Counted from the first letter of the stretch, positions 44,141 to 59,130 are shown. The stretch: DNA of 64,000 nt from Kiloniellaceae bacterium (GCA_021776135.1 JAJFGL010000031.1:4703-68702); one strand, 5' to 3'. The notes: generated by a model not told the origin, from the sequence alone. Program-made: numbers and translations.

Positions 44141-44153
44141 GGATTGCCCCCGG

Positions 44154-45873: not shown

Positions 45874-45887
45874 TTGATCTCCCTCAA
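45874..45887. promoter_or_regulatory. FNR/FixK-type box, one mismatch (TTGATCTCCCTCAA)
   Basis: Fits TTGA-N6-TCAA. Centre lies about 77 nt upstream of the USP gene ATG (45803) and overlaps the stop of the small membrane ORF. Confidence 0.4.
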
Positions 45888-46090
45888 GCGCGGTTGCGCC
45901 GGATCGCCCCGATCATGCAAAGCAACAGCCCGGCCGCGATGAGCATGGCGTGAAAGGGGACGATCTCGAGACCGCCGCGCCACGACAGCATGGTGTTGAG
46001 CCACCCCAGGATAATCAGGATAACGCCGAAGATACGAAAGACGGCGCCCCGGCTTCTATCAGGTAACGATTCCTGTGCCTCATCCCTCAT
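45884..46090 (-). CDS. Small two-TM membrane protein (68 aa) coupled to the cytochrome c/EB_dh gene
   Basis: ATGA start/stop overlap with the upstream gene. Two hydrophobic helices (VFRIFGVILIILGWL; AMLIAAGLLLCMIGAI). Confidence 0.5.
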   Translation of the reverse strand: MRDEAQESLPDRSRGAVFRIFGVILIILGWLNTMLSWRGGLEIVPFHAMLIAAGLLLCMIGAIRRNRA

Positions 46091-47622
46091 GGTGCCCGAG
46101 TCCTCGCGCTACGTCCCCACCAAATCAGAATCGCGCCGAGCAAAAGCGTAACGGCGATGGCGGCTATGATGGGCCGGGCACTAGCCGAGGGTTTCAGCAG
46201 CAGCCAGTACCAGGTGGTCATGGCGTGATGCGATCCGGCTTCGCCGTTGGAGCCGTCCCAGGCGAAAAAGGCGATGGGAATGAAACGCCCTTCCTCGAAC
46301 TGCAAGTCCTGGTCCGCGGCCCCGGTTATCAGTGGCCGGGTCATGACCACGCGCCAGGTGCCGGCCTTGTAGCTGCTCTTGGCCGTGAGGCCGCCGGCAT
46401 CGCGCATTTGTTGCTCGGCTATTCCCATGGCGTCGATCATGGCGACGCTTTCCGCTTCCTCCGTGGTGCCGCCGGACCAGCGCCAGAGATTGACCGGCTT
46501 GGCCGCGTCGCCCATGAGGAAATAGGGTTTCTCCATGCCGGCGGGGAGCGTCACCGGGAACTGCACGGCGACGGCGTCTTCGGTCAGGTCTTCGTCGGCG
46601 ATACTCAGGGCCTTAGGGTCGCCGGGGATGCTCTTCGTCCGGTCGTCCCATTCCAGATGCAGGCCGATTTTATCGCCGTTATAAAGGGCGCGGACGCTGA
46701 GCGTGTCGTTGGCGGCGGTGAAGAACCGCGTTTCGCCGACGATCTGCGGAACCATGAAAAAGGTTGAGGGCGGCGCCGCATCCCAGGCGGGATCTTCGGG
46801 CGAGGAGGGAATCTCCCCCTCCAGGCGCGCCGCCTGAATGACCGTGTTCGCGGGCCGCACGACCTTTTCCGTCTTGGCCAGGGAGGTCACGTAGTTGGCG
46901 ACGTGCCAGCGTTCCTCGATGCTCAACTTCTTCTTGCTCTTGGGGTCGGCGAAGGAGGGCATCTGTGTGGTCGGGATGCCCGCGGTGATTCGGTTGAAGA
47001 CGTCCTTGGGGTCGTTGCTGGCGCGGAAGGTCCAGGGCTTGGTTAGGTTCCGGGGCCAGGTTCGGTCGCCGTTGTCGTTTTTCAGCTTCTTGATGGCGTC
47101 GCCCTTGCCCTCGGCGCCATGGCATTCCGAACAGCGGTCGTCGGCGTGAAAGAGCGTCTTGCCGGCGGCGATGCTTTCCGCCGAGGTCGCGACCTGGGCA
47201 CCGTAATCCACCTGAGTTTCAGGTTCGCCCTCCAATTCCGCGAAGGTTTTGATATAGGCGATGACGTCCCACATGTCCTGTTCGTTCAGCAGGCCGCTCC
47301 AGCCCGGCATGGCGGTGCCGGGCATGCCGTCGCGGACCATGCGGAGCAGGTCGCCGTCGTTGGGCAAGTCCTCGTCGAAGGGCGTGGACTTGAACTTGTA
47401 GAGGCCGAAGGTGAAATCGCGCGGCGGCGGGTTCAGGCGCTCGGCGGCCGGGCCGAGGCCGTCGCCGTCCTCGCCGTGGCACTGCAGGCAGCGCTTCGCG
47501 TAGATGGCCTCGCCATTTTCCTCGTCGCCCGGTGCGGCCATGGCCGGGCCCAGATAAAGCGCCAGAAATCCGGCGGCAAAGACCGGCGGGAGGTATTTTT
47601 TCAGCCCGCCGCCCGCCATCAT
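46087..47622 (-). CDS. Diheme cytochrome c fused to EB_dh (DMSO-reductase type II heme-b subunit-like) domain with C-terminal TM anchor (module 1)
   Basis: Signal peptide. CLQCH and CSECH. C-terminal half has the EB_dh pattern (VRALYNGDKIGLHLEWDD..., AVQFPV..., FFAWDGSNGE). Terminal helix IIAAIAVTLLLGAILIWW. Confidence 0.8.
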   Translation of the reverse strand: MMAGGGLKKYLPPVFAAGFLALYLGPAMAAPGDEENGEAIYAKRCLQCHGEDGDGLGPAAERLNPPPRDFTFGLYKFKSTPFDEDLPNDGDLLRMVRDGMPGTAMPGWSGLLNEQDMWDVIAYIKTFAELEGEPETQVDYGAQVATSAESIAAGKTLFHADDRCSECHGAEGKGDAIKKLKNDNGDRTWPRNLTKPWTFRASNDPKDVFNRITAGIPTTQMPSFADPKSKKKLSIEERWHVANYVTSLAKTEKVVRPANTVIQAARLEGEIPSSPEDPAWDAAPPSTFFMVPQIVGETRFFTAANDTLSVRALYNGDKIGLHLEWDDRTKSIPGDPKALSIADEDLTEDAVAVQFPVTLPAGMEKPYFLMGDAAKPVNLWRWSGGTTEEAESVAMIDAMGIAEQQMRDAGGLTAKSSYKAGTWRVVMTRPLITGAADQDLQFEEGRFIPIAFFAWDGSNGEAGSHHAMTTWYWLLLKPSASARPIIAAIAVTLLLGAILIWWGRSARTRAP

Positions 47623-48386
47623 TCGTTCCCCCAGGTTCGCGGCGAATGGCCCGTGTAATCATAGAGGAACAGGATCGTTTTCCAGATCTCGTCTTCCTTA
47701 AGGAAATTCTGCCAGACCGGCATGGAGGAAATCCAAGGCGCCGCCTCCTTCGGCAAGCCTGGGCCGCCGGTGGCAATGCGCCAGAACAAATAGGATTCCT
47801 GAAGCTGGGCGATGGTGCCCACGTCCTGGAAATTGAGCGGCGTCGGGTTCAGGCCGGCCGCATAGGGGCCGTTGCCGTCGAGCTTGTCGCCGTGGCAGTA
47901 CTGGCAGTTCTGGATATAGACGGCGGCGCCTTCCTCAACCAATTCGCGGAATTGCTCCGGGTCTTCCTTCTCCAGCTTCCTGAAGGGGTTTTCCAGCTTC
48001 AGGAGATTGACCCGCTTACCGTAAATCTTGGCCGTGGTCGGCGGCGCCGGGTGGATGGTGCGCAACTCCAACGGCGCTTCGAAGCTGGGCTGCATCTGCA
48101 CGTAGGTGCCGGCCCCCGCCGCCAGCGGGACGATAACGAAAACGATGTTGCGCCACACGCGCTTGCTCGGATCCTCGACCAGGGCCTTGATGGGGGCGAC
48201 CAACTCGCGCGTCCCTTCCTCGTCGTAGGTAAAGACCATGAACACCCCGGCGGTGACGAAAAACATGTACATGACCAGCAGGCTGGACGGGATCACCGCC
48301 TCGAGGATCACGTCGAAGACGACGATAAAACCGAAATAGACCCCGGCCAGGACCAGCACGGCCTGCAGCAACTTGGGAATTCTCAT
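47619..48386 (-). CDS. Membrane-anchored monoheme cytochrome c (module 1)
   Basis: Hydrophobic N-terminal helices, one CQYCH motif. C-terminal WRIATGGPGLPKEAAPWISSMPVW is shared with its module-2 paralog. Confidence 0.8.
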   Translation of the reverse strand: MRIPKLLQAVLVLAGVYFGFIVVFDVILEAVIPSSLLVMYMFFVTAGVFMVFTYDEEGTRELVAPIKALVEDPSKRVWRNIVFVIVPLAAGAGTYVQMQPSFEAPLELRTIHPAPPTTAKIYGKRVNLLKLENPFRKLEKEDPEQFRELVEEGAAVYIQNCQYCHGDKLDGNGPYAAGLNPTPLNFQDVGTIAQLQESYLFWRIATGGPGLPKEAAPWISSMPVWQNFLKEDEIWKTILFLYDYTGHSPRTWGNE

Positions 48387-48396
48387 TGCCGCCTCC

Positions 48397-49218
48397 TCAC
48401 TTCAAACCGGCCAGGTAATCCAGCAGGATTTCCAGTTCCGCGACGTACATGGCCTCGCCCATATCCTCCGGCATCATGTCTTCTTCGAAGCCCTCGGCGA
48501 TATCGGCGTTGGGGTCCAGGATCGCGCGGCGGAGGTAGTCCCGGTCGCGGCTGGCGCCGATCCGGGTCAGGTCGGGCCCGACCTCGCCGCCTTCGCCGCC
48601 GATCGCGTGACAGGCGTCGCAGGTGAAAAGGGCCATGAGTTCCTGGGGGTCGGCGATGGCTTCGCGCGCTTCGCTCTCGTCTTCTTCGTCTTCTTCGTCT
48701 TCTTGCGCGCCTATGTCCTGAGGTACCTCGACCGTGACCTCGGCGCCGCTGGAATCCTGGAGATAGGCGACAACGGCCGCGACCTCGGCCTCGGACATGC
48801 CGATACCGCCGCTGGCGACATTCGGCATGGGGCTTTCGGTATCGTTGGTGCCTTTCTTGCCGAAACCGATGACCACGAAGGCCGAAGGATCGATCAGCGA
48901 CTCGGTCAGGTATTCCTCGACAGTTGCGGCCTCGCCCTCGTAGCGGGGATCTTCCAGGCGCCCTGCCGCGACCTCGCCGATCGCCGCCAACTCGGGCGCC
49001 CGGCCCAGGGAATTATGACAAAGGGTGCAGGTGCCCTTGCCGTTGAAGAGCCTCTCGCCCAGGGCGATAAAGCCGTCCAGGGTCATGGACCCGAGGTCGA
49101 GCTTTTCTTCCTTGGGCGGCGGCGCCGGTTCGATCTGCGGTATGCCGTAATTGGAATAGCCGGCGAAAAAGCCGATGGTCAGCAGGGTAAAGACAACCAC
49201 GGTGAGGAACTGGCGCAT
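48397..49218 (-). CDS. Membrane-anchored diheme cytochrome c (module 1)
   Basis: N-terminal TM helix, CTLCH and CDACH motifs. Acidic linker QEDEEDEEDESEA. Start shares 1 nt with the bd-like gene stop. Confidence 0.8.
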   Translation of the reverse strand: MRQFLTVVVFTLLTIGFFAGYSNYGIPQIEPAPPPKEEKLDLGSMTLDGFIALGERLFNGKGTCTLCHNSLGRAPELAAIGEVAAGRLEDPRYEGEAATVEEYLTESLIDPSAFVVIGFGKKGTNDTESPMPNVASGGIGMSEAEVAAVVAYLQDSSGAEVTVEVPQDIGAQEDEEDEEDESEAREAIADPQELMALFTCDACHAIGGEGGEVGPDLTRIGASRDRDYLRRAILDPNADIAEGFEEDMMPEDMGEAMYVAELEILLDYLAGLK

Positions 49219-51011
49219 TAGTCCTTCCAGTACCCGGCCGGCAGCGTCTTATCGCTACTGACCTGGGCGATCCAGAAGACGAAAATCACCATGGCCATGA
49301 AAATGATCGCGGCCACGGAGACCACATTGGCGGCATAGCCCAGGGTCGGCGTGAAGGCGTCCGGCGAGGCGTCGCGCATGATGTCGAGAACGTGCCAATG
49401 CTGGCGGATGCCGGAGCGGATGTAGCCCATCAGCCCCATGAGCCAGGTGAAGGCGACGGCGAGCAGGAACAAGGCGTACTGGGCCCGCTCCGGTATCCGC
49501 CCCCAATGCAGCGGCCCGACCTCCTTGCCGCCCCGGTAGATAAAGGAATCCAGGGCGATGCTGCCGGCGATGACAACCAAGGTGGTCAAGACCTGCGGGA
49601 TCGAGGCCGCGACCTTGTAAACCGTGTTGGTGAAGTAGCCGTGATAGATGCCCAGGAATAGGATGTTGGCGATGCCGGCCGCATAAAGCGCCACCTGTAT
49701 GGCGTTGCCGGCCTTGACCCAGGGCACGGTGGCGACCTTGTTGGCGCGCCGGTAGAACATGAAACTCAGCGCCGTGAAAATAATCATCACGTTCACCGCC
49801 GTGTTCTTGGCCGGCATGATGCCCAGGGGCCCGAGAATCTTGTGGTGCGGCCCGCCCAGGGCCTTCAACTCCTCGTTGGTCAGCACCAGGGTATGGGGCG
49901 TGAACCAGACCAGGAAGGCGCCGACCAGGACGATGGCGATGTATTTGATGTACTTGGTGTAGCGCTTGGCGCCGTCGCTGCGCCCCATGCCGCACCAGAG
50001 GTAATAGTTGGCCGAGAGGAACAGGGTGCCGATCAGCACCGCCTGGATGATGAACAGCCAGGCGAAGATGCCGCCCATGAGGGTGATCCCCATCTGCTGG
50101 CTGTAGGCGTAAATCTCGGCCGCCAGGTAGTACCCGGCGAAGGGCAGGGGCAACAGCGCGCAAATGGCGATGAAGTTGGCGTTGTACCCCATCCAGTCGT
50201 AGTGCGCGCGTTCCCGCGGCCCCGAGGCGGTCAGGAACTTGAAGGCCGCGTAGGCGCCGACGATGGAGCCGCCATAAGCGATGTTGGCGACGAAACGATG
50301 GATGTTGATGGGGTTCCAGAGGAAATTATGGATGGCGGCCCAGGCGTCGCCGCTGAAAACCCCGGCGCCATCGACACCCGCCGGGCTCATCATGAAGGTC
50401 AGCCAGGCATTGGCCAGCAACATGATCGTCGTGCCAACGGCATTGAGCACCAGGCCCAAGGTCAGATGCACCCACTTCCTGAAACCGCCCTGCAGCCAGT
50501 GCCAGCCGTAGTAATAAATGTATAGCGCCGCGCTCTCGGCGAAGAACAGCAGCGCGTAGTAGAACATGCTCTCGCGGAAAATGGTCGAGAGATAGGAAAA
50601 CAGGTGCGGATAAAACAGGATCAAGGAGAACAACAACATCCCACCCAGAATCGCGGTTAGGGAATAGGCGGTGATGGAAACCTTGATGAACTCGTAGGCC
50701 ATGTCGTCGTAGCGCTTGTCGCGGGTGCGCATGCCGATGGCTTCGATGATGAAAACGAAAATCGGCACGGCCAGGACGAAGGCCGCGAACCAGAGGTGAA
50801 GCTGGGCGAATATCCAGACCGCGACCCGGCTGTTGACGCCGGCGATGCTCGGGTAATCGGCGGCGCTGAGCTTGGGCGCCGGGGGATAAAGCCTGGCCGC
50901 CGCCTCCCCGTGCTCGGCGGCGAGGGCGCCCAACTGCTCGACGCCGGTAAAAGTAAGCGCCGCCGCGGCAAGGGCGAGCCCGATCCCGAATTTAGGGAGA
51001 GGCCGGTTCAT
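49218..51011 (-). CDS. Cytochrome bd ubiquinol oxidase subunit-I-like polytopic membrane protein (bd-like, module 1)
   Basis: 597 aa, many TM helices. CydA-like N-terminal helix with conserved His (FAQLHLWFAAFVLAVPIF). Segments YYYGW, MMSPAGVD, AHYDWMGY, LPLPFAGYY. No CydB gene adjacent. Confidence 0.75.
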   Translation of the reverse strand: MNRPLPKFGIGLALAAAALTFTGVEQLGALAAEHGEAAARLYPPAPKLSAADYPSIAGVNSRVAVWIFAQLHLWFAAFVLAVPIFVFIIEAIGMRTRDKRYDDMAYEFIKVSITAYSLTAILGGMLLFSLILFYPHLFSYLSTIFRESMFYYALLFFAESAALYIYYYGWHWLQGGFRKWVHLTLGLVLNAVGTTIMLLANAWLTFMMSPAGVDGAGVFSGDAWAAIHNFLWNPINIHRFVANIAYGGSIVGAYAAFKFLTASGPRERAHYDWMGYNANFIAICALLPLPFAGYYLAAEIYAYSQQMGITLMGGIFAWLFIIQAVLIGTLFLSANYYLWCGMGRSDGAKRYTKYIKYIAIVLVGAFLVWFTPHTLVLTNEELKALGGPHHKILGPLGIMPAKNTAVNVMIIFTALSFMFYRRANKVATVPWVKAGNAIQVALYAAGIANILFLGIYHGYFTNTVYKVAASIPQVLTTLVVIAGSIALDSFIYRGGKEVGPLHWGRIPERAQYALFLLAVAFTWLMGLMGYIRSGIRQHWHVLDIMRDASPDAFTPTLGYAANVVSVAAIIFMAMVIFVFWIAQVSSDKTLPAGYWKD

Positions 51012-51033
51012 GTTTTTCTCAAGGCCTCATCCA

Positions 51034-51150
51034 TCACTTATGAAATATCAGGCTCAGGCCCTGCATGTTCATGACCGCCACGTCGAGCAGCAGGAAGATC
51101 GCGGCGAAGGCGATCAGGGCCGCCGCGAAGGGAACTAAATAGCCATTCAT
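51034..51150 (-). CDS. Unannotated 38-aa single-TM peptide upstream of bd-like gene 1
   Basis: Hand translation: MNGYLVPFAAALIAFAAIFLLLDVAVMNMQGLSLIFHK. GGAGAA-like RBS upstream. Ends 22 nt before the bd-like ATG. Below the ORF-track size cutoff. Confidence 0.4.
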   Translation of the reverse strand: MNGYLVPFAAALIAFAAIFLLLDVAVMNMQGLSLIFHK

Positions 51151-51174
51151 GCCCGTTCTTCTCCCCCGCGTCCC

Positions 51175-51285
51175 TTAGGCCCGCACGAACCACCAGAAGA
51201 AAATCGCCAGCAGGGCCAGCACAACCATGAACAAAGCCGGCCCGGCCCAGCCAGCGCGTTCCTCTTCACCTTTTTGTTCAGTCAT
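51175..51285 (-). CDS. Unannotated 36-aa single-TM peptide
   Basis: Hand translation: MTEQKGEEERAGWAGPALFMVVLALLAIFFWWFVRA. AGGTG 7 nt upstream. The ATG may lie upstream of the start site of the putative FNR-dependent promoter. Confidence 0.3.
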   Translation of the reverse strand: MTEQKGEEERAGWAGPALFMVVLALLAIFFWWFVRA

Positions 51286-51313
51286 ATTTCAACACCTGGG
51301 AAACCCATCCAAC

Positions 51314-51327
51314 TTGATCGGGATCAA
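51314..51327. promoter_or_regulatory. Perfect FNR/CRP-family box TTGATCGGGATCAA
   Basis: Exact match to TTGAT-N4-ATCAA, in the only sizeable gap (185 nt) inside the cytochrome cluster. Minus-strand -10-like TGAAAT sits 22 nt away; plus-strand TAAGAT sits 23 nt away. Confidence 0.55.
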
Positions 51328-51362
51328 TGGACGGAGAGATTGCCTTGGGATAAGATTTGACC

Positions 51363-51464
51363 ATGCCGTCGCCCAAAAAACGCTTCGCCGACGCCGTTAT
51401 CCTCTCCGGCATGGCCGTGAACGCCGTGGTCATCGTCTTGATCCTCTATTTCTACGTCTTCTAG
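51363..51464 (+). CDS. Possible leaderless 33-aa TM peptide on the opposite strand (speculative)
   Basis: Hand translation: MPSPKKRFADAVILSGMAVNAVVIVLILYFYVF. The ATG sits about 42 nt from the FNR-box centre, where a class II promoter would start transcription. No RBS. Confidence 0.2.
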   Translation: MPSPKKRFADAVILSGMAVNAVVIVLILYFYVF

Positions 51465-51470
51465 GCAGCC

Positions 51471-51839
51471 CTATCCCTGTTTACCCTCGCACTGGCAGAG
51501 TGTGCGCAGGTGCCTGATCAGGCCATCGACCTGCTCGGCGGTCAGGGTTTTGCCCCAGGGCGGCATCATGGGCGATTTACTGACCGAGGGGCCGCCGTCC
51601 AGGATGACATTCTTCAAATCCGCGTCGGAAAGCTTGTTCATTTCCGCCGCGTTGGTGAAGTTACGCGGGCTGACGGGGAAATCCTTGGTCACGTTGGGAC
51701 CGTCGCCCTTGCCGGTCAGGCCGTGGCACTGGGCGCAATAGAACTTGAACACCTTTTCGGTCTCCGACGCCGTGGCCGGTGCCAGGGTCAGGAGAAAAAC
51801 GAACGCCGCGAAGGTTGCGATTGTCATTAGCTTTTTCAT
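51471..51839 (-). CDS. Soluble periplasmic monoheme cytochrome c
   Basis: Signal peptide MKKLMTIATFAAFVFLLTLAPATA, one CAQCH motif and a distal Met region (SPMMPPWG). Confidence 0.8.
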   Translation of the reverse strand: MKKLMTIATFAAFVFLLTLAPATASETEKVFKFYCAQCHGLTGKGDGPNVTKDFPVSPRNFTNAAEMNKLSDADLKNVILDGGPSVSKSPMMPPWGKTLTAEQVDGLIRHLRTLCQCEGKQG

Positions 51840-51853
51840 GGTCGGTCTCCCCC

Positions 51854-52516
51854 CTATTTCTTCGGCTTGAAGCTGGCCACATGGCGGGCGACGTTGGTCA
51901 TGTCCTTGTCGCTAAGAAGACCGGTGAAAACCGGCATCATCTTCACCGGCTTGAAGACCTTGGGTTTTTGCAGGTAGGCGAGAATCCAATCCGGGTTGAG
52001 GCGCAGGCCGGCCTCGACCAGGGAGGGGCCGCTGCGTCCACCGGAGATTTTCTTCTTGCGTCCCACGTACTGGTGGCAACCGCTGCACGGCATCTTCTTG
52101 ATGAAGATCTGGCGGCCCTTGGGGTTCTTCTTGGGCTTGACCTTGCCGGCTTCCACCTCATCGGTCGTGAGGGTCATGAGAAAGTCCGTGACCGCGGCCA
52201 CATCGGCGCCGTCCAGCTTCGGATGATCGCCGGGGTTTTCTTCCGTGAGGCTGTTGAACTTCATGGGCCGGATGGGTTTGGGATCGGCCAGCCAGCCAGC
52301 CAACCAGTCCTTCTGGAATTTCGATCCGGCGTACCAGAGTTCCGGCCCCTTCTTGGCCAACTGGTCGTCGATGGTCTTTTCCCTGGCCGGCCCGTCGGTG
52401 TAATGGCAGGCGACGCACCCCTTGGCCTCGAAGACATCCCCGCCGGCGGCCGAACCCGGTGACGCCGCGGCGGCCAGGAAGGCCGCGCTCAAAACCGCTG
52501 TCAGCATGTGTTTCAT
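51854..52516 (-). CDS. Soluble periplasmic diheme cytochrome c
   Basis: Signal peptide. CVACH and CSGCH motifs. Confidence 0.8.
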   Translation of the reverse strand: MKHMLTAVLSAAFLAAAASPGSAAGGDVFEAKGCVACHYTDGPAREKTIDDQLAKKGPELWYAGSKFQKDWLAGWLADPKPIRPMKFNSLTEENPGDHPKLDGADVAAVTDFLMTLTTDEVEAGKVKPKKNPKGRQIFIKKMPCSGCHQYVGRKKKISGGRSGPSLVEAGLRLNPDWILAYLQKPKVFKPVKMMPVFTGLLSDKDMTNVARHVASFKPKK

Positions 52517-52551
52517 GACTTTCTCTCCTCCAATTTCTTTTACCGGCGGCT

Positions 52552-54207
52552 TCAGGCGTCCACCTCCGCCGGCGTTTCTTCTTTTTCCGCCTTACGCATC
52601 AGCCAAATCCCCAGGCCGCCCGCGACCAGGAAGGCCAGGACGCTGTAGACATAAACGCTGACCGGCGTCGGCGCCTCGATGAAGACGTAGTGCCAGGTGC
52701 TGAGGCCCATGATCAGGCCGTGTTCGCCGTTGGAGCCGTCCCAGGCATTGACGGACATGGGGGTGAACAGGCCTTTCGCGAACTGCACGTCGTTCTTGTC
52801 GCCGGTATTCAGCGGCCGCTTCATGACCACGCTCCAGCGGCCCTGGTCCCACTTCGCCTGGCCGGCGATTTGCTGGCCGCCTTCGGCTTGGCGCTTGATC
52901 GGCTGTTTCCAGCCGCGCGCGTTGCCTTCCTCCGTGCCCCGCTCCCCGGCCGCGTCCAGGTCCGCCTTCCAGACCCAGAGGTGAACCTGGTCGGAGGAGG
53001 AGCCACGGTAGAAGTGCGGTTTTTTGGTGCCCTGTGTCGGCTTCACCGCGAATTGAAGCGCGATGGAATCGCGGAAGGTTTCCAGGGCCCGCGGCATCAT
53101 GCCGTTGGCTTCCACGTAGGAACTGAAGGATCCCACCTTGGCGATCTCTATGGGGTCGAACTCCCGCGCCTCGTCGTGCACGATGTCCTTGAAGGGATCG
53201 TCCCAGGTCAGGCGGAAGGAGATGTCCGTGTCGTTGGACAAGGCTTGCACGGTCACCATCTCGATGCTCGGGTTTTGCCAGCGCGGGGCCGCGATCACCT
53301 GCCCGGCCAAGCGCATGTCCATGGGTTCGGCCGCGTCCCAGGCGTCGTCGTCCGGGCTTTCCGGCAGGTCCGCCGTGACCGCCTTGACCTGCAAGGCCTG
53401 GTGGCTGGTCAGTTCATGCTGCAAGGATTTGATGTAACCGGCCAGATACCAGCGGTCTTCCTCGTTCAGGGACTTGATGAAGGACGGCATGGGCGTGCCG
53501 CTGATGCCGCTGGTGAAGCGCATGTAGATGTCTTCGACCTCGCCCCCCGCCTTGATCTTCCAGGGGTGGGTGACGTTGCGGATGCGGATCGGGAAACCCC
53601 AGTCGTCCTTGCGGAACTCCTTGTTGCCGTCGCCGCGGCCGAGCTTGCCGTGGCAACTCCAGCATTTGGCCTTTTCGAACACCTCCTTGCCCTTGGCGAT
53701 GGTTTCGGGCGTGACGGGCGGGCGATTGGCGGGCAGGGCGATGACCTTGCCGGTAGCCACGGGATCGAGGTCCGGGTCGTCGAATTCCTGGGCGAAGGTC
53801 TTGATGTAGCCGATGACCGCCCAGCGTTCGTCCTCGCTCAGGCCGCTCTTGATCAGGTCGTTGTCGAAGGCTTGCATGGCGGTGCCCGGTAAGCCCCGGC
53901 TGACGGTGCGGAACAGATCCTCGTTGGTGGGCAGCTCACCGCTTTGGGTGGTGCGGAACTTGAAGGTGCCGAGGGTGAAGTCGCGGGGCCTGGGGTCCAG
54001 GTACTTGGCCGCCGGTCCCTCGCCATCGCCCAGAAGCCCGTGGCAAAAACTGCAACGCCGGAAATAAACGCCGCGGCCCTGCTCCAGATGATCGTCCGTG
54101 GCCTCGGGCATGGGCTTGCTCGGAACGTTGGCGGCCAGGGCCGGGGCCGGGGCCGACACCCAGGCGGCGGCGATAACGGCGGCGAGTAGTTTACATGGCG
54201 CGCGCAT
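52552..54207 (-). CDS. Diheme cytochrome c fused to EB_dh heme-b domain with C-terminal TM anchor (module 2)
   Basis: Start set at Met 54207 (ATGA overlap). Signal peptide. CSFCH and CWSCH. EB_dh pattern (ISFRLTWDD..., ALQFAV..., VNAWDGSNGE). Terminal helix VYSVLAFLVAGGLGIWL. Paralog of 46087-47622. Confidence 0.8.
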   Translation of the reverse strand: MRAPCKLLAAVIAAAWVSAPAPALAANVPSKPMPEATDDHLEQGRGVYFRRCSFCHGLLGDGEGPAAKYLDPRPRDFTLGTFKFRTTQSGELPTNEDLFRTVSRGLPGTAMQAFDNDLIKSGLSEDERWAVIGYIKTFAQEFDDPDLDPVATGKVIALPANRPPVTPETIAKGKEVFEKAKCWSCHGKLGRGDGNKEFRKDDWGFPIRIRNVTHPWKIKAGGEVEDIYMRFTSGISGTPMPSFIKSLNEEDRWYLAGYIKSLQHELTSHQALQVKAVTADLPESPDDDAWDAAEPMDMRLAGQVIAAPRWQNPSIEMVTVQALSNDTDISFRLTWDDPFKDIVHDEAREFDPIEIAKVGSFSSYVEANGMMPRALETFRDSIALQFAVKPTQGTKKPHFYRGSSSDQVHLWVWKADLDAAGERGTEEGNARGWKQPIKRQAEGGQQIAGQAKWDQGRWSVVMKRPLNTGDKNDVQFAKGLFTPMSVNAWDGSNGEHGLIMGLSTWHYVFIEAPTPVSVYVYSVLAFLVAGGLGIWLMRKAEKEETPAEVDA

Positions 54208-55172
54208 CAGTGGCTCTCCGGAATACGCGGGGTTTTCTGGGCCAGGTCGTACTCGGCCAGAATGATCTTCCAGCGCTCTTCCTCGGTCAGGCTGAGCTTC
54301 CATTCGGGCATGGCCGAATCCCAGGGCGTCGCTTCCGTGGGCAGGCCGGGGCCGCCATTGGTAACCCGCCAGAAGGTATAGCCCTCGACGATGGTCTCGA
54401 TGGTGCCGTTGTCGGTGAAATTGATCGGCCTGAGCTTGAAGCCGTCGGCCATGGGGCCGTCGCCGGCGACGCTGTCGCCGTGGCAGGCCCGGCAGTTCAT
54501 GGCGTAGAGGGCCCGGCCCTCGAACAGATTTTTCTCCAGCAGCGCCGCGCGCGCGGTTTCCCTATCCACCGAGCCGGATTCCAGCTGCGCCAGAAACTTC
54601 TTCACCGGCTCCACGGCGAAGAACTCCAGCACATGGTCCGGCTCCACTTCATTCATCCAGTTCTCCACGTCCTCTTGCACCTGGGGAATAAACTCGATCT
54701 CGTTGGCTTCGGCCTGCTCGATGAAGGCCGTGACCTGGGCCTCGCCCGGATTGGCGATGGGGTTTTTCTTGTCCTCGAAGCTCTTGGGGAAGTTCGACGA
54801 GGGATGCTGGATGCGCAGCGAGGAGGGCACCTCCACCTTGGGCACCACCACCTCGTAAACCTGCCAGGAGACCACTACCGGCACCGCCAAGAGAACGGCG
54901 GCGCGCGCAATCTTGCTATAGCCGCCACGCAGAAGCTTCTTGACCGGGCGGAGGAAGTCGTCGAGCCCCTCCTCGGAGAAGGTCACGAACAGGAACAGCG
55001 CCACGACCGTCAACACCATGTAGAAGAACATCAAGGTGCCGGGCACCGGCAGCGGGAAGGGCAGCGTCGTCACTTCCCGGGAAACCGCGGGGATGCCCCA
55101 CTTCACCAGGGCATAGACAACCAGCAGTATCAGAACCACCGTGAAGAAGCTGCCAAGCCGCAATTTTTTCAT
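54207..55172 (-). CDS. Membrane-anchored monoheme cytochrome c (module 2)
   Basis: N-terminal TM helices, one CRACH motif. WRVTNGGPGLPTEATPWDSAMPEW is paralogous to module 1. Confidence 0.8.
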   Translation of the reverse strand: MKKLRLGSFFTVVLILLVVYALVKWGIPAVSREVTTLPFPLPVPGTLMFFYMVLTVVALFLFVTFSEEGLDDFLRPVKKLLRGGYSKIARAAVLLAVPVVVSWQVYEVVVPKVEVPSSLRIQHPSSNFPKSFEDKKNPIANPGEAQVTAFIEQAEANEIEFIPQVQEDVENWMNEVEPDHVLEFFAVEPVKKFLAQLESGSVDRETARAALLEKNLFEGRALYAMNCRACHGDSVAGDGPMADGFKLRPINFTDNGTIETIVEGYTFWRVTNGGPGLPTEATPWDSAMPEWKLSLTEEERWKIILAEYDLAQKTPRIPESH

Positions 55173-55185
55173 GATCGCCCGCCCA

Positions 55186-56172
55186 TCACTGCGCCTCTGG
55201 TTTCGGCTTTTGCAACATCAGGTAAGACAGGATGTCCTGGTAGTCCTTGACCGTCATGGCCTCGGACAGGTCGTCGGGCATGACGCTCTTGGTGTCGTCG
55301 ATCCTGATTTCCTTGATGTCCGCCTTCTCCAGGGTGACCACGTCGCCGGTGGCCGTGGTGATATCGATCTCCCCGGCCTCGTCGCGGGTTTTCAGGCCGA
55401 TAGTCTGGCGGCCTTCCTGGTTGACGGCGACGTAAGTCTCGAAGCCCTTGGTCAGGGCTTTCGCCGGTTGCAAAATGGCTTCAGAGATGAACTTCAGCCC
55501 CTTGCCGGCGATGCCGGAAAGTTCCGGGCCGATCTCACCGCCCTCGCCGTTCAGGATGTGACATTCCGAGCAGTTGTCCTCGTAGACGATGGCGCCTTCG
55601 CCCGGATCGCCGCCGCCGGCGGCGGCCGCCGCGGAAATCTTGGCATAGAAGGCTTCCGTCAATTCGCCCGGCGCGGTGTCGATGGCTTCCATGTCCAGAT
55701 CGCCGCCCAGGGACATGAGATAGGCGGCCACCGCCTTGATCTCCGTGAGGCTCAAGGAAATCGGCGGCGCGTAGACCACGGCCATCTCGTTCTTGTAGCC
55801 CTTGACCACATAGGCGCCGGGGCTGGCCAGGCTTTCGACGAGGTAATCGACGGCGGTGAACTCGGTTCCTTCCTTTTCCGAACGCTCCTTGGCCCGTTCC
55901 TCGGCCCGCGCGCCCATGGCCAGGGGAAACTTTTCCCCGAATTGGCCGTGGTTCGGGCCGCGCACGGCGCTGCCTTGACCGCCGACGCTATGACAGGTGA
56001 AGCAACGCCCCTTGCCCCAGTAGATGGTCTCGCCGCCTTCCGGGCTGACATCGACGGCGGCGCTGGTTCTTTGTCCGCCCCCGGTAAGTTCGGTAATGGA
56101 ATATCCGATCCAGAGGTAGGTGCCCAAGACGATCAGCAGAAAAGCAAACAGGCGGGCAAGGGTCGCGGCCAT
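55186..56172 (-). CDS. Membrane-anchored diheme cytochrome c (module 2)
   Basis: N-terminal TM helix. CFTCH and CSECH motifs. Paralog of 48397-49218. Confidence 0.8.
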   Translation of the reverse strand: MAATLARLFAFLLIVLGTYLWIGYSITELTGGGQRTSAAVDVSPEGGETIYWGKGRCFTCHSVGGQGSAVRGPNHGQFGEKFPLAMGARAEERAKERSEKEGTEFTAVDYLVESLASPGAYVVKGYKNEMAVVYAPPISLSLTEIKAVAAYLMSLGGDLDMEAIDTAPGELTEAFYAKISAAAAAGGGDPGEGAIVYEDNCSECHILNGEGGEIGPELSGIAGKGLKFISEAILQPAKALTKGFETYVAVNQEGRQTIGLKTRDEAGEIDITTATGDVVTLEKADIKEIRIDDTKSVMPDDLSEAMTVKDYQDILSYLMLQKPKPEAQ

Positions 56173-56176
56173 GCCC

Positions 56177-58327
56177 TCAGTCCTCCTTCTTGCCCGTAGC
56201 GGCGCCGCCGAGCCAGAACATGAAGGCGCACCCGATCATGAACAGAAGAACGGCGGCGCCGACCTGCTGGGTCATGACGAAATTACTTGGCGTGTAGGCC
56301 CATTCCGAGGTGTCGCGCATGATCCCGAAGATGTGCCAATCGCCGCGCAGGCCGGAACGGATAAAGCCCATGAGGCCCATGTTCATGGTGATGATGAAGG
56401 TCAGCAGCAACAACGCGTACTGAGACCGCACGGTCATCTTGCCCCATTGCAGCGGGCCCAGGGACTTGGCGCGCTTGAACAGGAAGACGTCGATGACCGA
56501 AACCAGAATCAGACAGCTTATGAGTTGCAGGAATTGCGCGACCGCCACGTTGCGCAGCACCGGCGAGGCCTTCTCCATGACCACGAAGCCCCAGACGCCC
56601 AGGAACAGGGTCACGTTGAAGGCGGTGACGGCCAGATAGAGCACCTGCCCCAGCTTGCCCCGGTCCATGAGCGCCAGGACGATGGCGGCGGCGCCGGCCA
56701 GGCACTCGAAGACCAGCACATAGCCGATCATATGGATGAATTCGGCCCGGTCCGCCGGCAGGTCGAGCGCGGCCGGATCCAGGGTCAGCATGGTCACCGC
56801 GTACTGCGCCACCAGGGCGATGGCGGCGGCGCCGATGACTATGATGGTAATGCGCGCGCCCTTGCCCTGATCGCGGATCGAGACCGCGTCCATCATGTTG
56901 CCCCGGCGATACAGCAGGAAGCTGAAGAAGGTCGCCAGGATGATCAAATTCACGACCGCGTTCTTGGCCGGCATCAGGCCCAGGAACTTGAGCATGGGAT
57001 GATACTGGCTGCCGCCCATTTCACCGACCTCCAGGCTGCTCAGGGGCAGGTTATGGGGGGTCAGCCAAATGGCGAAGGAGACGATCAGCGCCAGCAGGAT
57101 GTACTTGATGAACTTGTAATACCGCTGGGCGCCGGGGATGCGGGTCATGCCGCTCCACAGGTAGTAGTTGGAGATAACGAACAGAGAGCCCACCAGCATG
57201 GCCTGGATGATGAAGGTCCAGGAAAAGTCGCCGCCCATCATGTTGTTGCCCATGACCGCGCTGGTCGAATAAACCTCGCGCCCCAGGTAATAGCCGGCGA
57301 AGGGCAGCGGGATCAGCGCCGCGATGGCGACGAAGTTGGCGATATAGCCCATCCAGTCGTAATGAGCCTTTTCCTGCGGCGTCTTGGCGGCGATGAATTT
57401 GACGGCGGCGTAGGAACCGGCGACCAGGCCGCCGAAGGCCAGATTGCCGAGCATGCGGTGAATGGCGATCGGCGTGGCCAGGACGTTTTCGAAAGCCTGC
57501 CAGACGGTGCCGACAAGAACGCCGTCCGCGTCGACGCCGGCCGGGCTCATCATGTAACCGGCCCAGGAGTTGGCCAGTTGCATGATCGCGGTGCCGAAGA
57601 CGTTGAGAGTAATGCCGATGAAGATGTGGGTCGATTTCAGATCGCGGATCATCCAGAACCCGATGGCCGTGGGCGTGATGTAAAGAAGCAGGATGAACCA
57701 GCGGGTATCGACCCGCATGTCGGGACCGATGAAGCCGAGGCCGAAGGCCAGGCCGAAGCCGGCCATGAGCACGGCGAGCGCCTTGAACAGCCATTGCAGT
57801 TTGACCGGGAATTTGCGTTCGCTCTTCAGCCAATTCCAGCCGTAATAATACATATACAGCGCGAAGGTCTCGCCGAAGAACAGCAGTGCGTACATGAACA
57901 TGACATCTTTGAAGATGCCGGCCATGTGGCCCATGAAGGTCGGGTAGAGGGTAAACAGCGCGAAGGCCAGAAGCCCGCCCAGAGCGGCGGTGGTCGCGTA
58001 GGCGATGCTCAAAAGACTGGTGAACTCATAGGCCAGTTTGTCGAACTTGGGGTCTTTGTTGTTCCAGCCGACGATCTCGATAATCACCGCGAAGAGCGGC
58101 ACGCCGAGAACGAAGGCGGCGAAGAACAAGTGCATCTGGGCGATGAACCAGATCAGGCGCCGGGAATCGATGCCCAGGAACTGGCGGTAGACGTTCTCCT
58201 CCAGCGCCAGGGCCGGGGTCGCGGCAAGGACCAGCCCGACCGCGACCAGAACCGCCAAGCCCAGGCTTGCGGTTCGGGAGATTCCCCACCCGGCGCTAAG
58301 GTTGTTCGTCGTTCGACCCTGCGTCAT
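56177..58327 (-). CDS. Cytochrome bd subunit-I-like polytopic membrane protein (bd-like, module 2; about 70-aa extra two-helix insertion)
   Basis: 716 aa. Same conserved blocks as module 1 (IAQMHLFFAAFVLGVPLF, YYYGW, MMSPAGVD, AHYDWMGY, LPLPFAGYY), plus an inserted hydrophobic segment FPVKLQWLFKAL...GFWMIRDLKS. Confidence 0.75.
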   Translation of the reverse strand: MTQGRTTNNLSAGWGISRTASLGLAVLVAVGLVLAATPALALEENVYRQFLGIDSRRLIWFIAQMHLFFAAFVLGVPLFAVIIEIVGWNNKDPKFDKLAYEFTSLLSIAYATTAALGGLLAFALFTLYPTFMGHMAGIFKDVMFMYALLFFGETFALYMYYYGWNWLKSERKFPVKLQWLFKALAVLMAGFGLAFGLGFIGPDMRVDTRWFILLLYITPTAIGFWMIRDLKSTHIFIGITLNVFGTAIMQLANSWAGYMMSPAGVDADGVLVGTVWQAFENVLATPIAIHRMLGNLAFGGLVAGSYAAVKFIAAKTPQEKAHYDWMGYIANFVAIAALIPLPFAGYYLGREVYSTSAVMGNNMMGGDFSWTFIIQAMLVGSLFVISNYYLWSGMTRIPGAQRYYKFIKYILLALIVSFAIWLTPHNLPLSSLEVGEMGGSQYHPMLKFLGLMPAKNAVVNLIILATFFSFLLYRRGNMMDAVSIRDQGKGARITIIVIGAAAIALVAQYAVTMLTLDPAALDLPADRAEFIHMIGYVLVFECLAGAAAIVLALMDRGKLGQVLYLAVTAFNVTLFLGVWGFVVMEKASPVLRNVAVAQFLQLISCLILVSVIDVFLFKRAKSLGPLQWGKMTVRSQYALLLLTFIITMNMGLMGFIRSGLRGDWHIFGIMRDTSEWAYTPSNFVMTQQVGAAVLLFMIGCAFMFWLGGAATGKKED

Positions 58328-58344: not shown

Positions 58345-59130
58345 CTACTCGCTATCGGAGAAGGTAAAGTCGATCTCCTGCGCGCCCTTGGCGGCGACCG
58401 TGATCTTGGTTTTCTTGACCCCGTAGCGCGGATGCCAGGCCTTCAGCGTGTACTTGCCCGGCGGCAGGTTATCGATGGCATAGGAGCCGTCGTCGCCGAC
58501 CACCACGGCATAGGGATGAACCGGCGCCATGATGAAGCCGAACATGAAGTTGTGGGCCTCGCAGTTGATGCCGATGTAGGACGAGCGGCGCGGCTTGATC
58601 TTGTCGGTGATGTCGCCGGGATCCGGCTGCCCGAAGTTGAAGAGCGTCTTCTTGACCACGCGGCCCTTCTCGACCCCGATCAGCTCACGGGCGTTGATGT
58701 TGTGCAGCACCCCGGCGTCGCTGTTGCGGATGACGAAGGGGCCGGGCCTGACGACCTGGGCCCAGGGCCGGAAACGGCAACCCTTCTGATTGACCAGATA
58801 GGTGCCCATCTCGGGCTTCGGCCAGGCTTTGCCTTCCTCAATCTTGGAAATGAAAACGAAAACGCCGCGCAAGGCGCCGTCCTTGACGTCAACCCAGGCG
58901 ACTTCGCGCTCGCCCTCGCCGCAAACATCGACGTTTTTGGTAATCAGGATTTTCTCGATTGCGTCGGCGGGAACCGCGCCCTCGAAACTAATCTTGCCGG
59001 TGACCGTGCCGCCATCGGCGACGTCCATTTCTTTGTACTTGTCCTTTTTGGCCGCCTCTACCGGCGCCGCTAGCGCCAGGGAGGCAAAAGCAGCCAGCAC
59101 AAGGCTGACGATAGGTAATTTCGATGTCAT
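58345..59130 (-). CDS. Periplasmic cupredoxin-like protein (putative type 1 Cu site) with beta-sandwich (CarboxypepD_reg-like) C-terminal domain
   Basis: Signal peptide. Candidate ligands H in GVLHNI and C-x2-H-x2-M in INCEAHNFM (amicyanin-like spacing). C-terminal DDGSYAIDNLPPGKYTLKAWHP. Confidence 0.55.
   Translation of the reverse strand: MTSKLPIVSLVLAAFASLALAAPVEAAKKDKYKEMDVADGGTVTGKISFEGAVPADAIEKILITKNVDVCGEGEREVAWVDVKDGALRGVFVFISKIEEGKAWPKPEMGTYLVNQKGCRFRPWAQVVRPGPFVIRNSDAGVLHNINARELIGVEKGRVVKKTLFNFGQPDPGDITDKIKPRRSSYIGINCEAHNFMFGFIMAPVHPYAVVVGDDGSYAIDNLPPGKYTLKAWHPRYGVKKTKITVAAKGAQEIDFTFSDSE

Follow-up and report, generated by a model that had tools for sequence, protein, structure and literature searches.

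The question raised by this locus is what a protein of the cytochrome bd type does when subunit II (CydB) is missing and c-type cytochromes are its neighbours. The DNA concerned is a stretch of 64,000 nucleotides from a Kiloniellaceae bacterium (GCA_021776135.1 JAJFGL010000031.1:4703-68702), referred to below as the window, and the system is a pair of gene modules, A and B, each headed by a homologue of CydA (cytochrome bd subunit I) and continued by three genes for membrane-anchored cytochromes c. On the basis of a published residue table, the helix count and the operon content, each module is assigned as an OR-N2-type cytochrome bd-like complex. Domain calls were made at the Pfam gathering score and the NCBIfam cut-offs, on about 45 high-confidence open reading frames (ORFs) of the window, a few being left out. 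Synteny counts rest on the 80 loci that were fetched, and counts for a flank on those loci with at least 7.5 kb on that side.

Two CydA homologues with neither CydB nor a Q-loop

The original prediction had described two CydA-like ORFs of 597 and 716 amino acids (aa). Both are as described, on the minus strand, and Pfam, sequence matches to the Protein Data Bank (PDB) and fold matches agree on what they are.

56177-58327, minus strand: bd-like protein A, 716 aa, OR-N2-type CydA homologue (PF01654, E 6.8e-11, residues 56-170)
49218-51011, minus strand: bd-like protein B, 597 aa, OR-N2-type CydA homologue (PF01654, E 7.9e-17, residues 61-302)

The Pfam family Cyt_bd_oxida_I passes its gathering score in both proteins over the N-terminal part only (the first 120-240 residues), and solved CydA chains are matched by sequence (9r2g_A, E 8e-12; 5doq_A, E 4.8e-7 (716-aa protein)). 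The two paralogues are 46% identical and differ mainly by two hydrophobic-helix insertions in the 716-aa protein, near residues 170-230 and 510-595. With about 18 hydrophobic segments by hydropathy, the latter is the longer variant, having some four more helices than the 597-aa protein.

The fold of the 597-aa protein was predicted with AlphaFold. A first run on a shallow alignment of close relatives gave a mean predicted local distance difference test score (pLDDT) of 54 and was set aside; when 33 diverse representatives were added, the second run gave a pLDDT of 88.7 and a predicted template modelling (pTM) score of 0.88. The model comprises an N-terminal helix and 13 long helices, making 14 predicted transmembrane helices, whose orientation was taken from the model and from where Lys and Arg lie under the positive-inside rule. 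CydA chains take the first ten places among its PDB matches (E 4.6e-8 to 1.7e-5, target-normalised TM 0.51-0.61); CydB chains rank after these, and there was no other significant match.

In bd oxidases the histidine of helix 1 (His19 in Escherichia coli CydA) ligates the active-site haem, and Glu107 and His126 belong to the proton path. The residues found at the positions of interest are as follows.

E. coli CydA His19: H72 in the 597-aa protein, H66 in the 716-aa protein (hidden Markov model (HMM) alignment)
E. coli CydA Glu107: E159 in the 597-aa protein, E153 in the 716-aa protein (HMM alignment)
E. coli CydA Glu99: Tyr152 in the 597-aa protein, Tyr146 in the 716-aa protein (HMM alignment)
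His126 equivalent of the bd proton path: H182 in the 597-aa protein, H234 in the 716-aa protein (kept)
E. coli CydA His186: H238 in the 597-aa protein, H290 in the 716-aa protein (HMM alignment)
CydA Met393: M399 in the 597-aa protein, M452 in the 716-aa protein (spacing against the published residue table)
CydA Glu445: Ser533 in the 597-aa protein, Ser658 in the 716-aa protein (replaced)

The first point to note is that the haem b558 ligand pair is kept (H238/M399 in the 597-aa protein, H290/M452 in the 716-aa protein), as is the helix-1 histidine, while Glu445 has become Ser and the Q-loop is lost. Residues H66, E153, H234, H290 and M452 of the 716-aa protein are conserved. Across 35 full-length family members of 30-52% identity, H72 is present in 32, H182 in 34, H238 in 33, M399 in 27 and E159 in 25. 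Further histidines are less constant in the same set, with H270 in 21 members, H373 in 24, and H390 and H540 in 28 each. The motifs named at the outset, namely the first-helix His, IHRF/IHRM, AHYDW and TPHT/TPHN, are all present and conserved; in the order 716-aa/597-aa their histidines are H290/H238 (IHR), H322/H270 (AHYDW) and H425/H373 (TPH). In the 716-aa orthologues of three betaproteobacterial loci (L062, L064 and L073) the otherwise invariant helix-1 histidine is Lys.

Homology to CydA ends, in both proteins, ahead of the Q-loop, the quinol site between helices 6 and 7. From the model we infer that a pair of transmembrane helices stands in place of the Q-loop, with a short loop of 28 residues on the periplasmic side, and that a second helix pair has been inserted ahead of the equivalents of CydA helices 8 and 9. 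The short loop of the 597-aa protein bears the conserved residues T371-P372-H373, E381 and H390.

The predicted lack of a subunit II gene also held in every search made. Cyt_bd_oxida_II (PF02322) matched none of the approximately 45 window ORFs scanned (a few were unscanned), E. coli CydB found nothing in any of the six frames of the 64-kb window by tblastn or phmmer, and cydB was not seen in the conserved 22-kb syntenic loci. Canonical CydAB enzymes (E. coli, Geobacillus, mycobacteria) share with the bd-like proteins the core-helix fold and three residues of the haem site and proton path. However, they have nine helices, a Q-loop, CydB, E445 and E99, whereas the bd-like proteins have 14-18 helices, none of these other features, and cytochrome c partners. 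The reading that these are not canonical quinol oxidases is thus supported by the sequence on four counts: absence of the Q-loop, absence of CydB, and the changes of E445 to Ser and of E99 to Tyr.

Neither of two other membrane complexes fits. For alternative complex III there was no Pfam match of the ActC/ActF or ActB type among the scanned ORFs, and 6btm_C matched the model weakly (TM 0.20-0.24, probability 0.60). A haem-copper oxidase was considered and rejected, as no such domain was found and a SCO1/SenC gene occurs in three loci only. Where present, this copper chaperone gene lies in or beside the cluster (L089 9245-9886, L030 and L053), hinting at a copper-binding component.

Cytochrome partners and the OR-N2 family

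The genes of the region lie densely packed on the minus strand, the exception being a 35-aa ORF (51357-51464, plus strand). Several starts overlap the previous stop by 1 or 4 nt, or trail it by no more than about 15 nt. In order of transcription, an AioA-family molybdopterin subunit is followed by a HEAT protein (757 aa), a secreted 261-aa protein and module A. Two further cytochromes c (220 and 122 aa) and three small membrane ORFs then separate module A from module B, which is followed by a 68-aa membrane ORF, a Usp-PCP_red protein, a radical SAM enzyme resembling AhbD/NirJ and a HemY homologue. Module A consists of the 716-aa CydA homologue, a 328-aa dihaem cytochrome c, a 321-aa monohaem cytochrome c and a fusion of dihaem cytochrome c to an EB_dh domain. 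In module B the 597-aa CydA homologue is joined by a 273-aa dihaem cytochrome c, a 255-aa monohaem cytochrome c and a 511-aa dihaem-EB_dh protein. The cytochromes are listed in transcription order.

55186-56172, minus strand: dihaem cytochrome c, 328 aa, anchored at its N-terminus (two CxxCH, one N-terminal hydrophobic helix); homologue of Kustd1711
54207-55172, minus strand: monohaem cytochrome c, 321 aa, its N-terminus forming 2-3 transmembrane helices (one CxxCH, three hydrophobic peaks, Pfam Cytochrome_CBB3)
52552-54207, minus strand: fusion of dihaem cytochrome c to an EbdC-like (EB_dh) domain, C-terminal anchor, module A (EB_dh E 2.2e-20, two Cytochrom_C stretches)
51854-52516, minus strand: dihaem cytochrome c, 220 aa, with a FixO-like C-terminal half (Pfam Cytochrom_C and FixO, two CxxCH)
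51471-51839, minus strand: monohaem cytochrome c, 122 aa, with a signal-peptide-like N-terminus (Pfam, one CxxCH; conserved in 54 loci)
48397-49218, minus strand: dihaem cytochrome c, 273 aa, anchored at its N-terminus and paralogous to the 328-aa protein (Pfam, two CxxCH, N-terminal helix)
47619-48386, minus strand: monohaem cytochrome c, 255 aa, paralogous to the 321-aa protein, with two helices at the N-terminus (Pfam, hydropathy)
46087-47622, minus strand: 511-aa fusion of dihaem cytochrome c to an EbdC-like haem-b domain, anchored at the C-terminus (EB_dh E 7e-26)

Three tethered cytochromes had been predicted to follow each bd-like gene. The trio of the 597-aa gene is there, but at 46087-49218, beyond the range originally given for the system. 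After the 716-aa gene there are indeed three anchored cytochromes, but five in total, the other two having cleavable-looking signal peptides. In the 220-aa protein, which is conserved in 57 loci, the sole hydrophobic segment is an N-terminal leader of the AxA type, and this protein and the 122-aa cytochrome are probably soluble periplasmic carriers. The eight cytochromes together contain 13 CxxCH motifs, the three membrane-anchored ones of each module accounting for five haems c.

The 328-aa cytochrome aligns from end to end with Kustd1711, whose crystal structure is PDB 7zs0_A (E 4e-53). In the 511-aa protein the N-terminal dihaem half matches a second dihaem cytochrome of known structure, 6h5l_B (E 1e-41), and the EB_dh half matches EbdC (2ivf_C, E 1.6e-13), with Met370 aligned to Met108 of 2ivf_C, as the first residue of the second alignment block. 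The module A fusion matches DMSO_red_II_gam of NCBIfam and carries a C-terminal hydrophobic helix. Its ORF was listed as 583 aa, but the true start is likely to be Met33, giving 551 aa, the homologues being 551-553 aa long. Each module probably holds one haem b in its EB_dh domain; when the haem ligand was checked, haem-b binding by the module A domain appeared uncertain because the column of EbdC Met108 is Arg in the 583-aa ORF.

A physical tie between the bd-like proteins and c-type cytochromes is supported by overlapping or abutting genes (within about 15 nt), the start of the 273-aa gene overlapping the stop of the 597-aa gene by 1 nt, and by some distant relatives (P0241, P0242, P0258 and P0296) in which the bd-like protein is fused, C- or N-terminally, to one or two cytochrome c domains. 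Taken with the lost Q-loop, the lack of CydB and the replaced E445 and E99, this bears out the idea of non-canonical bd-like proteins working with cytochromes c.

Four conserved small ORFs predicted to form membrane helices were also found.

51357-51464, plus strand: 35-aa single-helix ORF (tblastn matches in 54 loci)
51175-51285, minus strand: 36-aa single-helix ORF with the motif WAGPALF...FFWWF (tblastn, 51 loci, same position)
51034-51150, minus strand: 38-aa single-helix ORF, 22 nt upstream of the 597-aa gene (tblastn, 49 loci; a called gene in L087 and L088)
45884-46090, minus strand: 68-aa two-helix ORF that overlaps the end of the 511-aa gene (68-102-aa homologues there in L087, L089, L090 and a JGI contig)

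The 35-aa ORF runs against the operon here and in most Alphaproteobacteria, and with it in many gamma- and betaproteobacterial loci. By analogy with CydX of bd oxidase, the 38-, 36- and 68-aa ORFs, which keep their places in about 50 loci, may be small subunits of module B. These four ORFs, the EB_dh domain of the third cytochromes and the upstream context of IdrA-like enzyme and peroxidases had been overlooked in the original prediction.

The bd superfamily has been divided into qOR, OR-C and OR-N enzymes, the OR-N group being proposed to reduce O2 with cytochrome c as the donor (Murali, Gennis and Hemp 2021, bioRxiv 10.1101/2021.01.16.426971). In the OR-N2 signature, H19, E107, H126, H186 and W441 are kept, E99 is replaced by Y and E445 by S, and M393 appears as an M/N pair; the reference positions are H99, Y183, E190, H213, H269, M430/N434, S563 and W569 (bioRxiv 10.1101/2021.01.16.426971). 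The 597-aa protein holds all the signature positions, as H72, Y152, E159, Y166/Y168, H182, H238, M399/N403, S533 and W539. Its H72-Y152 interval is four residues shorter than H99-Y183 of the reference, and the later spacing is exact or within one residue (near S533). OR-N2 proteins have 14 helices and no quinol site, which is also true of the 597-aa protein, and their operons contain several cytochromes c and an EbdC homologue, as do both modules. They differ in host and company: OR-N2 hosts are Nitrospirota, whereas the present host belongs to the Proteobacteria, and the partner genes here are idr-like rather than nxr. Two loci from Nitrospirae metagenome-assembled genomes (MAGs; L078 and L080) carry orthologues of 67-71% identity.

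The same architecture, with both functions suggested at the outset, O2 reduction by electrons from cytochrome c or a connection of cytochrome c with the quinone pool, is already in print (PMC3578206, PMC6606698, bioRxiv 10.1101/2021.01.16.426971), so that the novelty implied at the outset falls away: the modules match the 'bd-like_3 / alt_NxrC_2' genes of the nxr clusters of Nitrospira, Nitrospina and anammox bacteria. The bd-like protein of these clusters was reported to have 14 helices, conserved haem-b ligands and membrane helices in place of the Q-loop, and the roles discussed for it were those of a terminal oxidase or of a complex like alternative complex III in reverse electron transport (PMC3578206). 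Mundinger et al. described bd-like_3 together with two cytochromes c bound to the membrane and with alt_NxrC_2, in which a transmembrane helix is combined with two haem motifs (PMC6606698). In the Kuenenia nxr cluster (kustd1706-1712), uspA, a number of cytochromes and a gene resembling cydA follow one another in the same order. In Nitrospira, Nitrospina and Kuenenia alike, the nxr module runs from a bd-like protein through a Kustd1711-like dihaem cytochrome c and a monohaem cytochrome c to an anchored dihaem EbdC-like protein, the order found here. These clusters also have a second bd-like copy (bd-like_4 in Nitrospira) a few genes downstream and a Usp gene nearby, as in the window.

The resemblance ends at the neighbouring enzyme. 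The nxr-cluster modules flank nitrite oxidoreductase (NXR), whereas those described here accompany an IdrA-like enzyme and two peroxidases, and no NxrA/B-type gene was found in the window or the syntenic loci. The hosts, too, are probably different, being heterotrophs of low-oxygen water. By composition the modules may also be likened to that of Candidatus Manganitrophus TO_1, in which a bd-like protein, two cytochromes c and a periplasmic cytochrome b are very highly expressed and O2 reduction has been proposed; there, however, the module is single and the host a manganese-oxidising lithotroph. OR-N enzymes are reported to be highly expressed where a haem-copper oxidase is absent or weakly expressed (PMC6606698; Manganitrophus study).

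The IdrA-like island and its flanks

The gene that leads the cluster is cut by the window end.

61508-64000, minus strand: IdrA-like molybdopterin subunit of the AioA family (Pfam Rieske_3, Molybdopterin, Molydop_binding)

Its score against TIGR02693 (324.8 bits) lies under the arsenite oxidase cut-off of 359. It is 48% identical to the IdrA homologue of Azonexus hydrophilus NCP973, a strain published as iodate-reducing, and 30% identical to AioA of NT-26 and Thermus, and in a neighbour-joining distance tree without support values it groups with IdrA and not with AioA. Iodate reduction itself has been demonstrated for distant relatives only.

Relatives of the 716-aa protein at 67-90% identity were found in 460 species-representative genomes; with a gene order kept to this extent, the modules are not a chance arrangement. 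The carriers are mostly marine MAGs from oxygen-minimum zones (ETNP (eastern tropical North Pacific), Arabian Sea, Saanich Inlet) together with groundwater genomes, and belong to Alpha-, Beta-, Gamma- and Deltaproteobacteria and Nitrospirae. Throughout the 80 loci, and from class to class, the genes keep nearly the same order, a second module being present in 46 of 52 loci with sufficient downstream sequence and the AioA-like (IdrA-like) gene in 49 of 52 with sufficient upstream sequence. In L001 (1063-6738) and L017 (1329-6898) the IdrA-like gene is preceded by a TAT-Rieske (twin-arginine translocation) protein gene, two dihaem cytochrome c peroxidase genes and a BTAD regulator gene, and the Rieske and peroxidase genes recur in 46-49 further loci. 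These genes would lie beyond the window end, and their presence in this genome is inferred from synteny.

The validated idrABP1P2 clusters of Pseudomonas sp. SCT, Denitromonas sp. IR-12 and A. hydrophilus NCP973 have the order peroxidase, peroxidase, Rieske, molybdopterin subunit, which is also that of the syntenic loci. They differ in having no bd-like modules; the Azonexus cluster has just one small cytochrome c, and a Vibrio relative has no such modules on its replicon. Published idr work places the IdrA clade of oxygen-minimum-zone Alphaproteobacteria and SAR324 apart from that of cultured strains, and the idr papers either describe the flanking genes as poorly conserved or leave cytochromes unmentioned. 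We found no paper in the searchable literature that links iodate or IdrA with bd-like proteins or cytochrome bd. The bd-like pair thus belongs to an extended idr-type island, a setting that is new in so far as the linkage was not found in the literature searched.

There are exceptions to the linkage. Haem-related genes lie upstream in Arenicellales and Acidiferrobacteraceae loci, and module A occurs alone, without idr genes, in some Deltaproteobacteria and Nitrospirae (L057, L063, L065 and L080). On an Arenicellales contig (L090, 15372-21863) nap-type genes (NapC-like, dihaem cytochrome c, NapA-like, ferredoxins) come after the module pair, and no idr genes precede it. A search of a plasmid collection with the bd-like protein gave no true relatives. 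The whole cluster is carried by a complete genome labelled Pseudopelagicola sp. nBUS_20, which is not marked as a MAG.

The remaining genes on either side of the modules are listed below.

58345-59130, minus strand: secreted 261-aa protein with a C-terminal CarboxypepD_reg beta-sandwich (Pfam; beside the bd-like gene in 64 loci)
59146-61419, minus strand: HEAT-repeat protein, 757 aa, of the CpcE/NblB-like lyase type (HEAT_2, E 3.6e-52)
44154-45803, minus strand: tandem Usp fused to a PCP_red domain (Pfam; beside the modules in alpha- and gammaproteobacterial contigs)
42863-44257, minus strand: radical SAM/SPASM enzyme related to AhbD/NirJ2, with a C-terminal PCP_red domain (Pfam; NCBIfam about 308 bits, cut-offs 500)
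41478-42959, minus strand: homologue of HemY-type protoporphyrinogen/coproporphyrinogen oxidase (TIGR00562, 260 bits, cut-off 97.85; in related clusters)

The 261-aa protein has an invariant, type-1-copper-like arrangement, H143...C190-x2-H193-x2-M196, as well as invariant Cys70 and Cys118. No cupredoxin match was obtained by Pfam, sequence or PDB profile search, which recognised only the beta-sandwich. Going by the H...C-x2-H-x2-M motif, the protein is possibly a copper electron carrier; cupredoxin-like proteins have been reported from nxr clusters that contain this module. In the HEAT protein, matches to CpcE, CpcF and NblB of NCBIfam are all under their cut-offs, and a long acidic Glu-Ala/Glu-Thr repeat, EAEAETEAETEAEAEAEAEAEAEA, lies at about residues 440-470 between two repeat blocks. 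The protein adjoins haem-related genes in another contig (JGI), and the AhbD/NirJ2-like gene is conserved next to the modules in related loci. The tetrapyrrole-related set of Usp-PCP_red, radical SAM, HemY and CpcE-like HEAT proteins travels with the modules across lineages (e.g. L089 15214-20088), and the Pseudopelagicola cluster has a ferrochelatase as well. The set could supply the complex with haem made without oxygen, or could modify its haem.

Possible functions of the modules

The function that we favour, tentatively and with slightly less than even confidence, is that of a terminal reductase fed by cytochrome c, with O2 as the most likely oxidant. The three membrane-anchored periplasmic cytochromes would replace quinol as the electron donor, the 220-aa and 122-aa soluble cytochromes acting as shuttles. 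Electrons would pass from high-potential periplasmic c and b haems to the b558-like haem and on to the His-ligated haem, where the oxidant, most likely O2 at very low concentration, would be reduced with cytoplasmic protons, energy being conserved as in bd oxidases. An O2-type reductase is favoured because the active-site His and the Glu/His residues of the proton path are conserved, and because a cytoplasmic proton path makes thermodynamic sense only for a strongly exergonic reaction. The high potential of the haems in Kustd1711, the Kuenenia homologue of the 328-aa cytochrome (about +350 mV; PMC11791136), is consistent with this. As the pair is co-inherited with the IdrA-like enzyme, the Rieske protein and two peroxidases, we interpret the island as a group of terminal reductases that cytochrome c would supply with electrons for the reduction of iodate, peroxide and oxygen in low-oxygen marine and groundwater bacteria. 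In one published model iodate reduction releases O2, which is then respired (PMC8692401), and this echoes the role of the modules as a third sink.

Several observations weigh against O2 reduction. The module is found in the nxr cluster of strictly anaerobic anammox bacteria, which have no obvious need of it, and in the Pacific oxygen-deficient zone the IdrA protein ('formerly AioA-like') was found only in the lowest-oxygen samples. Work on Nitrospira assigns bd-like_3/4 to reverse electron flow and not to O2 reduction (PMC6606698). The third haem ligand, E445, is Ser and E99 is Tyr, and the proton-path argument consists of two conserved residues and an analogy. Finally, neither the PDB nor the literature searched holds a structure or an activity for any OR-N member, none having been purified or assayed.

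A less likely but serious alternative is that the module couples quinol and cytochrome c, in that direction or the reverse, through a newly evolved quinone site, as was hypothesised for the bd-like_3 / alt_NxrC_2 cluster of Nitrospira (PMC3578206, PMC6606698). Here the flow would be downhill: the module would take electrons from quinol, and the soluble cytochromes would hand them on to the peroxidases and the IdrA-like reductase. The island would then be a self-sufficient, transferable respiratory unit. One function would then fit the NXR setting of Nitrospira, Nitrospina and the anaerobic anammox bacteria, the Idr-like setting, and the position next to nap genes in Arenicellales. The expression of IdrA under near-anoxia would fit as well, and the passage of the island between classes with its order intact is what would be expected of a unit bringing its own electron supply. 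However, no quinol-binding feature is recognisable, the Q-loop having given way to two helices and a short periplasmic loop (PMC3578206), and the retained active-site His and proton-path Glu/His would serve no purpose in a simple relay. Moreover, NapC and NapGH-like genes are already part of the nap cluster in Arenicellales, and validated iodate reducers do without the module, as the Azonexus idr cluster illustrates.

It is possible, though unlikely, that the His-ligated haem reduces HIO, H2O2 or NO, formed by or alongside the neighbouring enzyme, instead of O2. Published models of iodate reduction do invoke HIO, H2O2 and possibly O2 as intermediates (PMC8692401), the IdrA-like enzyme and two peroxidases are tightly linked to the modules, and the anaerobic anammox bacteria that carry the module handle NO. 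Yet the sequence points to no particular substrate, H2O2 is already covered by the two peroxidases, and the loci with the module alone (those of the Deltaproteobacteria and Nitrospirae given above) have no idr genes.

A more specific proposal, to which we likewise give little weight, is that the modules are the missing membrane limb of iodate respiration and would reduce HIO and/or O2 coming from the IdrA-like enzyme, with cytochrome c electrons and cytoplasmic protons. By analogy, the mirror image may also apply, in which the molybdoenzyme would oxidise a high-potential substrate and the modules pass the electrons to O2, as proposed for Nitrospira NXR.

That these are ordinary cytochrome bd quinol oxidases whose CydB is encoded elsewhere is very improbable. 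The public annotation does read 'cytochrome ubiquinol oxidase subunit I', and only 64 kb of the genome is in view; but the proteins have 14-18 helices rather than 9, no Q-loop and replacements at E445 and E99, no cydB was found in the window or the syntenic loci, and some relatives are fused to cytochrome c. Least credible of all is a non-redox membrane scaffold merely anchoring the cytochromes, which would suit the strength of CydA homology in the first five helices only, because the haem ligands have not been lost: H72, H238, M399 and many polar intramembrane residues are conserved at 30-50% identity.

Until now, bd-like (OR-N) proteins have been proposed as the terminal oxidase or the reverse-electron-flow link of nitrite oxidisers, anammox bacteria and manganese oxidisers. 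To our knowledge, none of these known hosts is easily manipulated genetically. The same module proves to be widespread in Proteobacteria, with relatives in 460 species-level genomes, and because the complete Pseudopelagicola sp. nBUS_20 genome carries the whole cluster, deletion, expression and purification become realistic, given a culture. The tight linkage to an IdrA-like enzyme suggests that the machinery of marine iodate reduction in oxygen-minimum zones goes beyond the four idr marker genes. If the modules were indeed the membrane limb of iodate respiration, the 20-gene island would represent a complete, energy-conserving and horizontally mobile pathway from iodate to iodide. The value of the finding is practical: an enigmatic respiratory module is placed in Proteobacteria and appears tied to marine iodate reduction.

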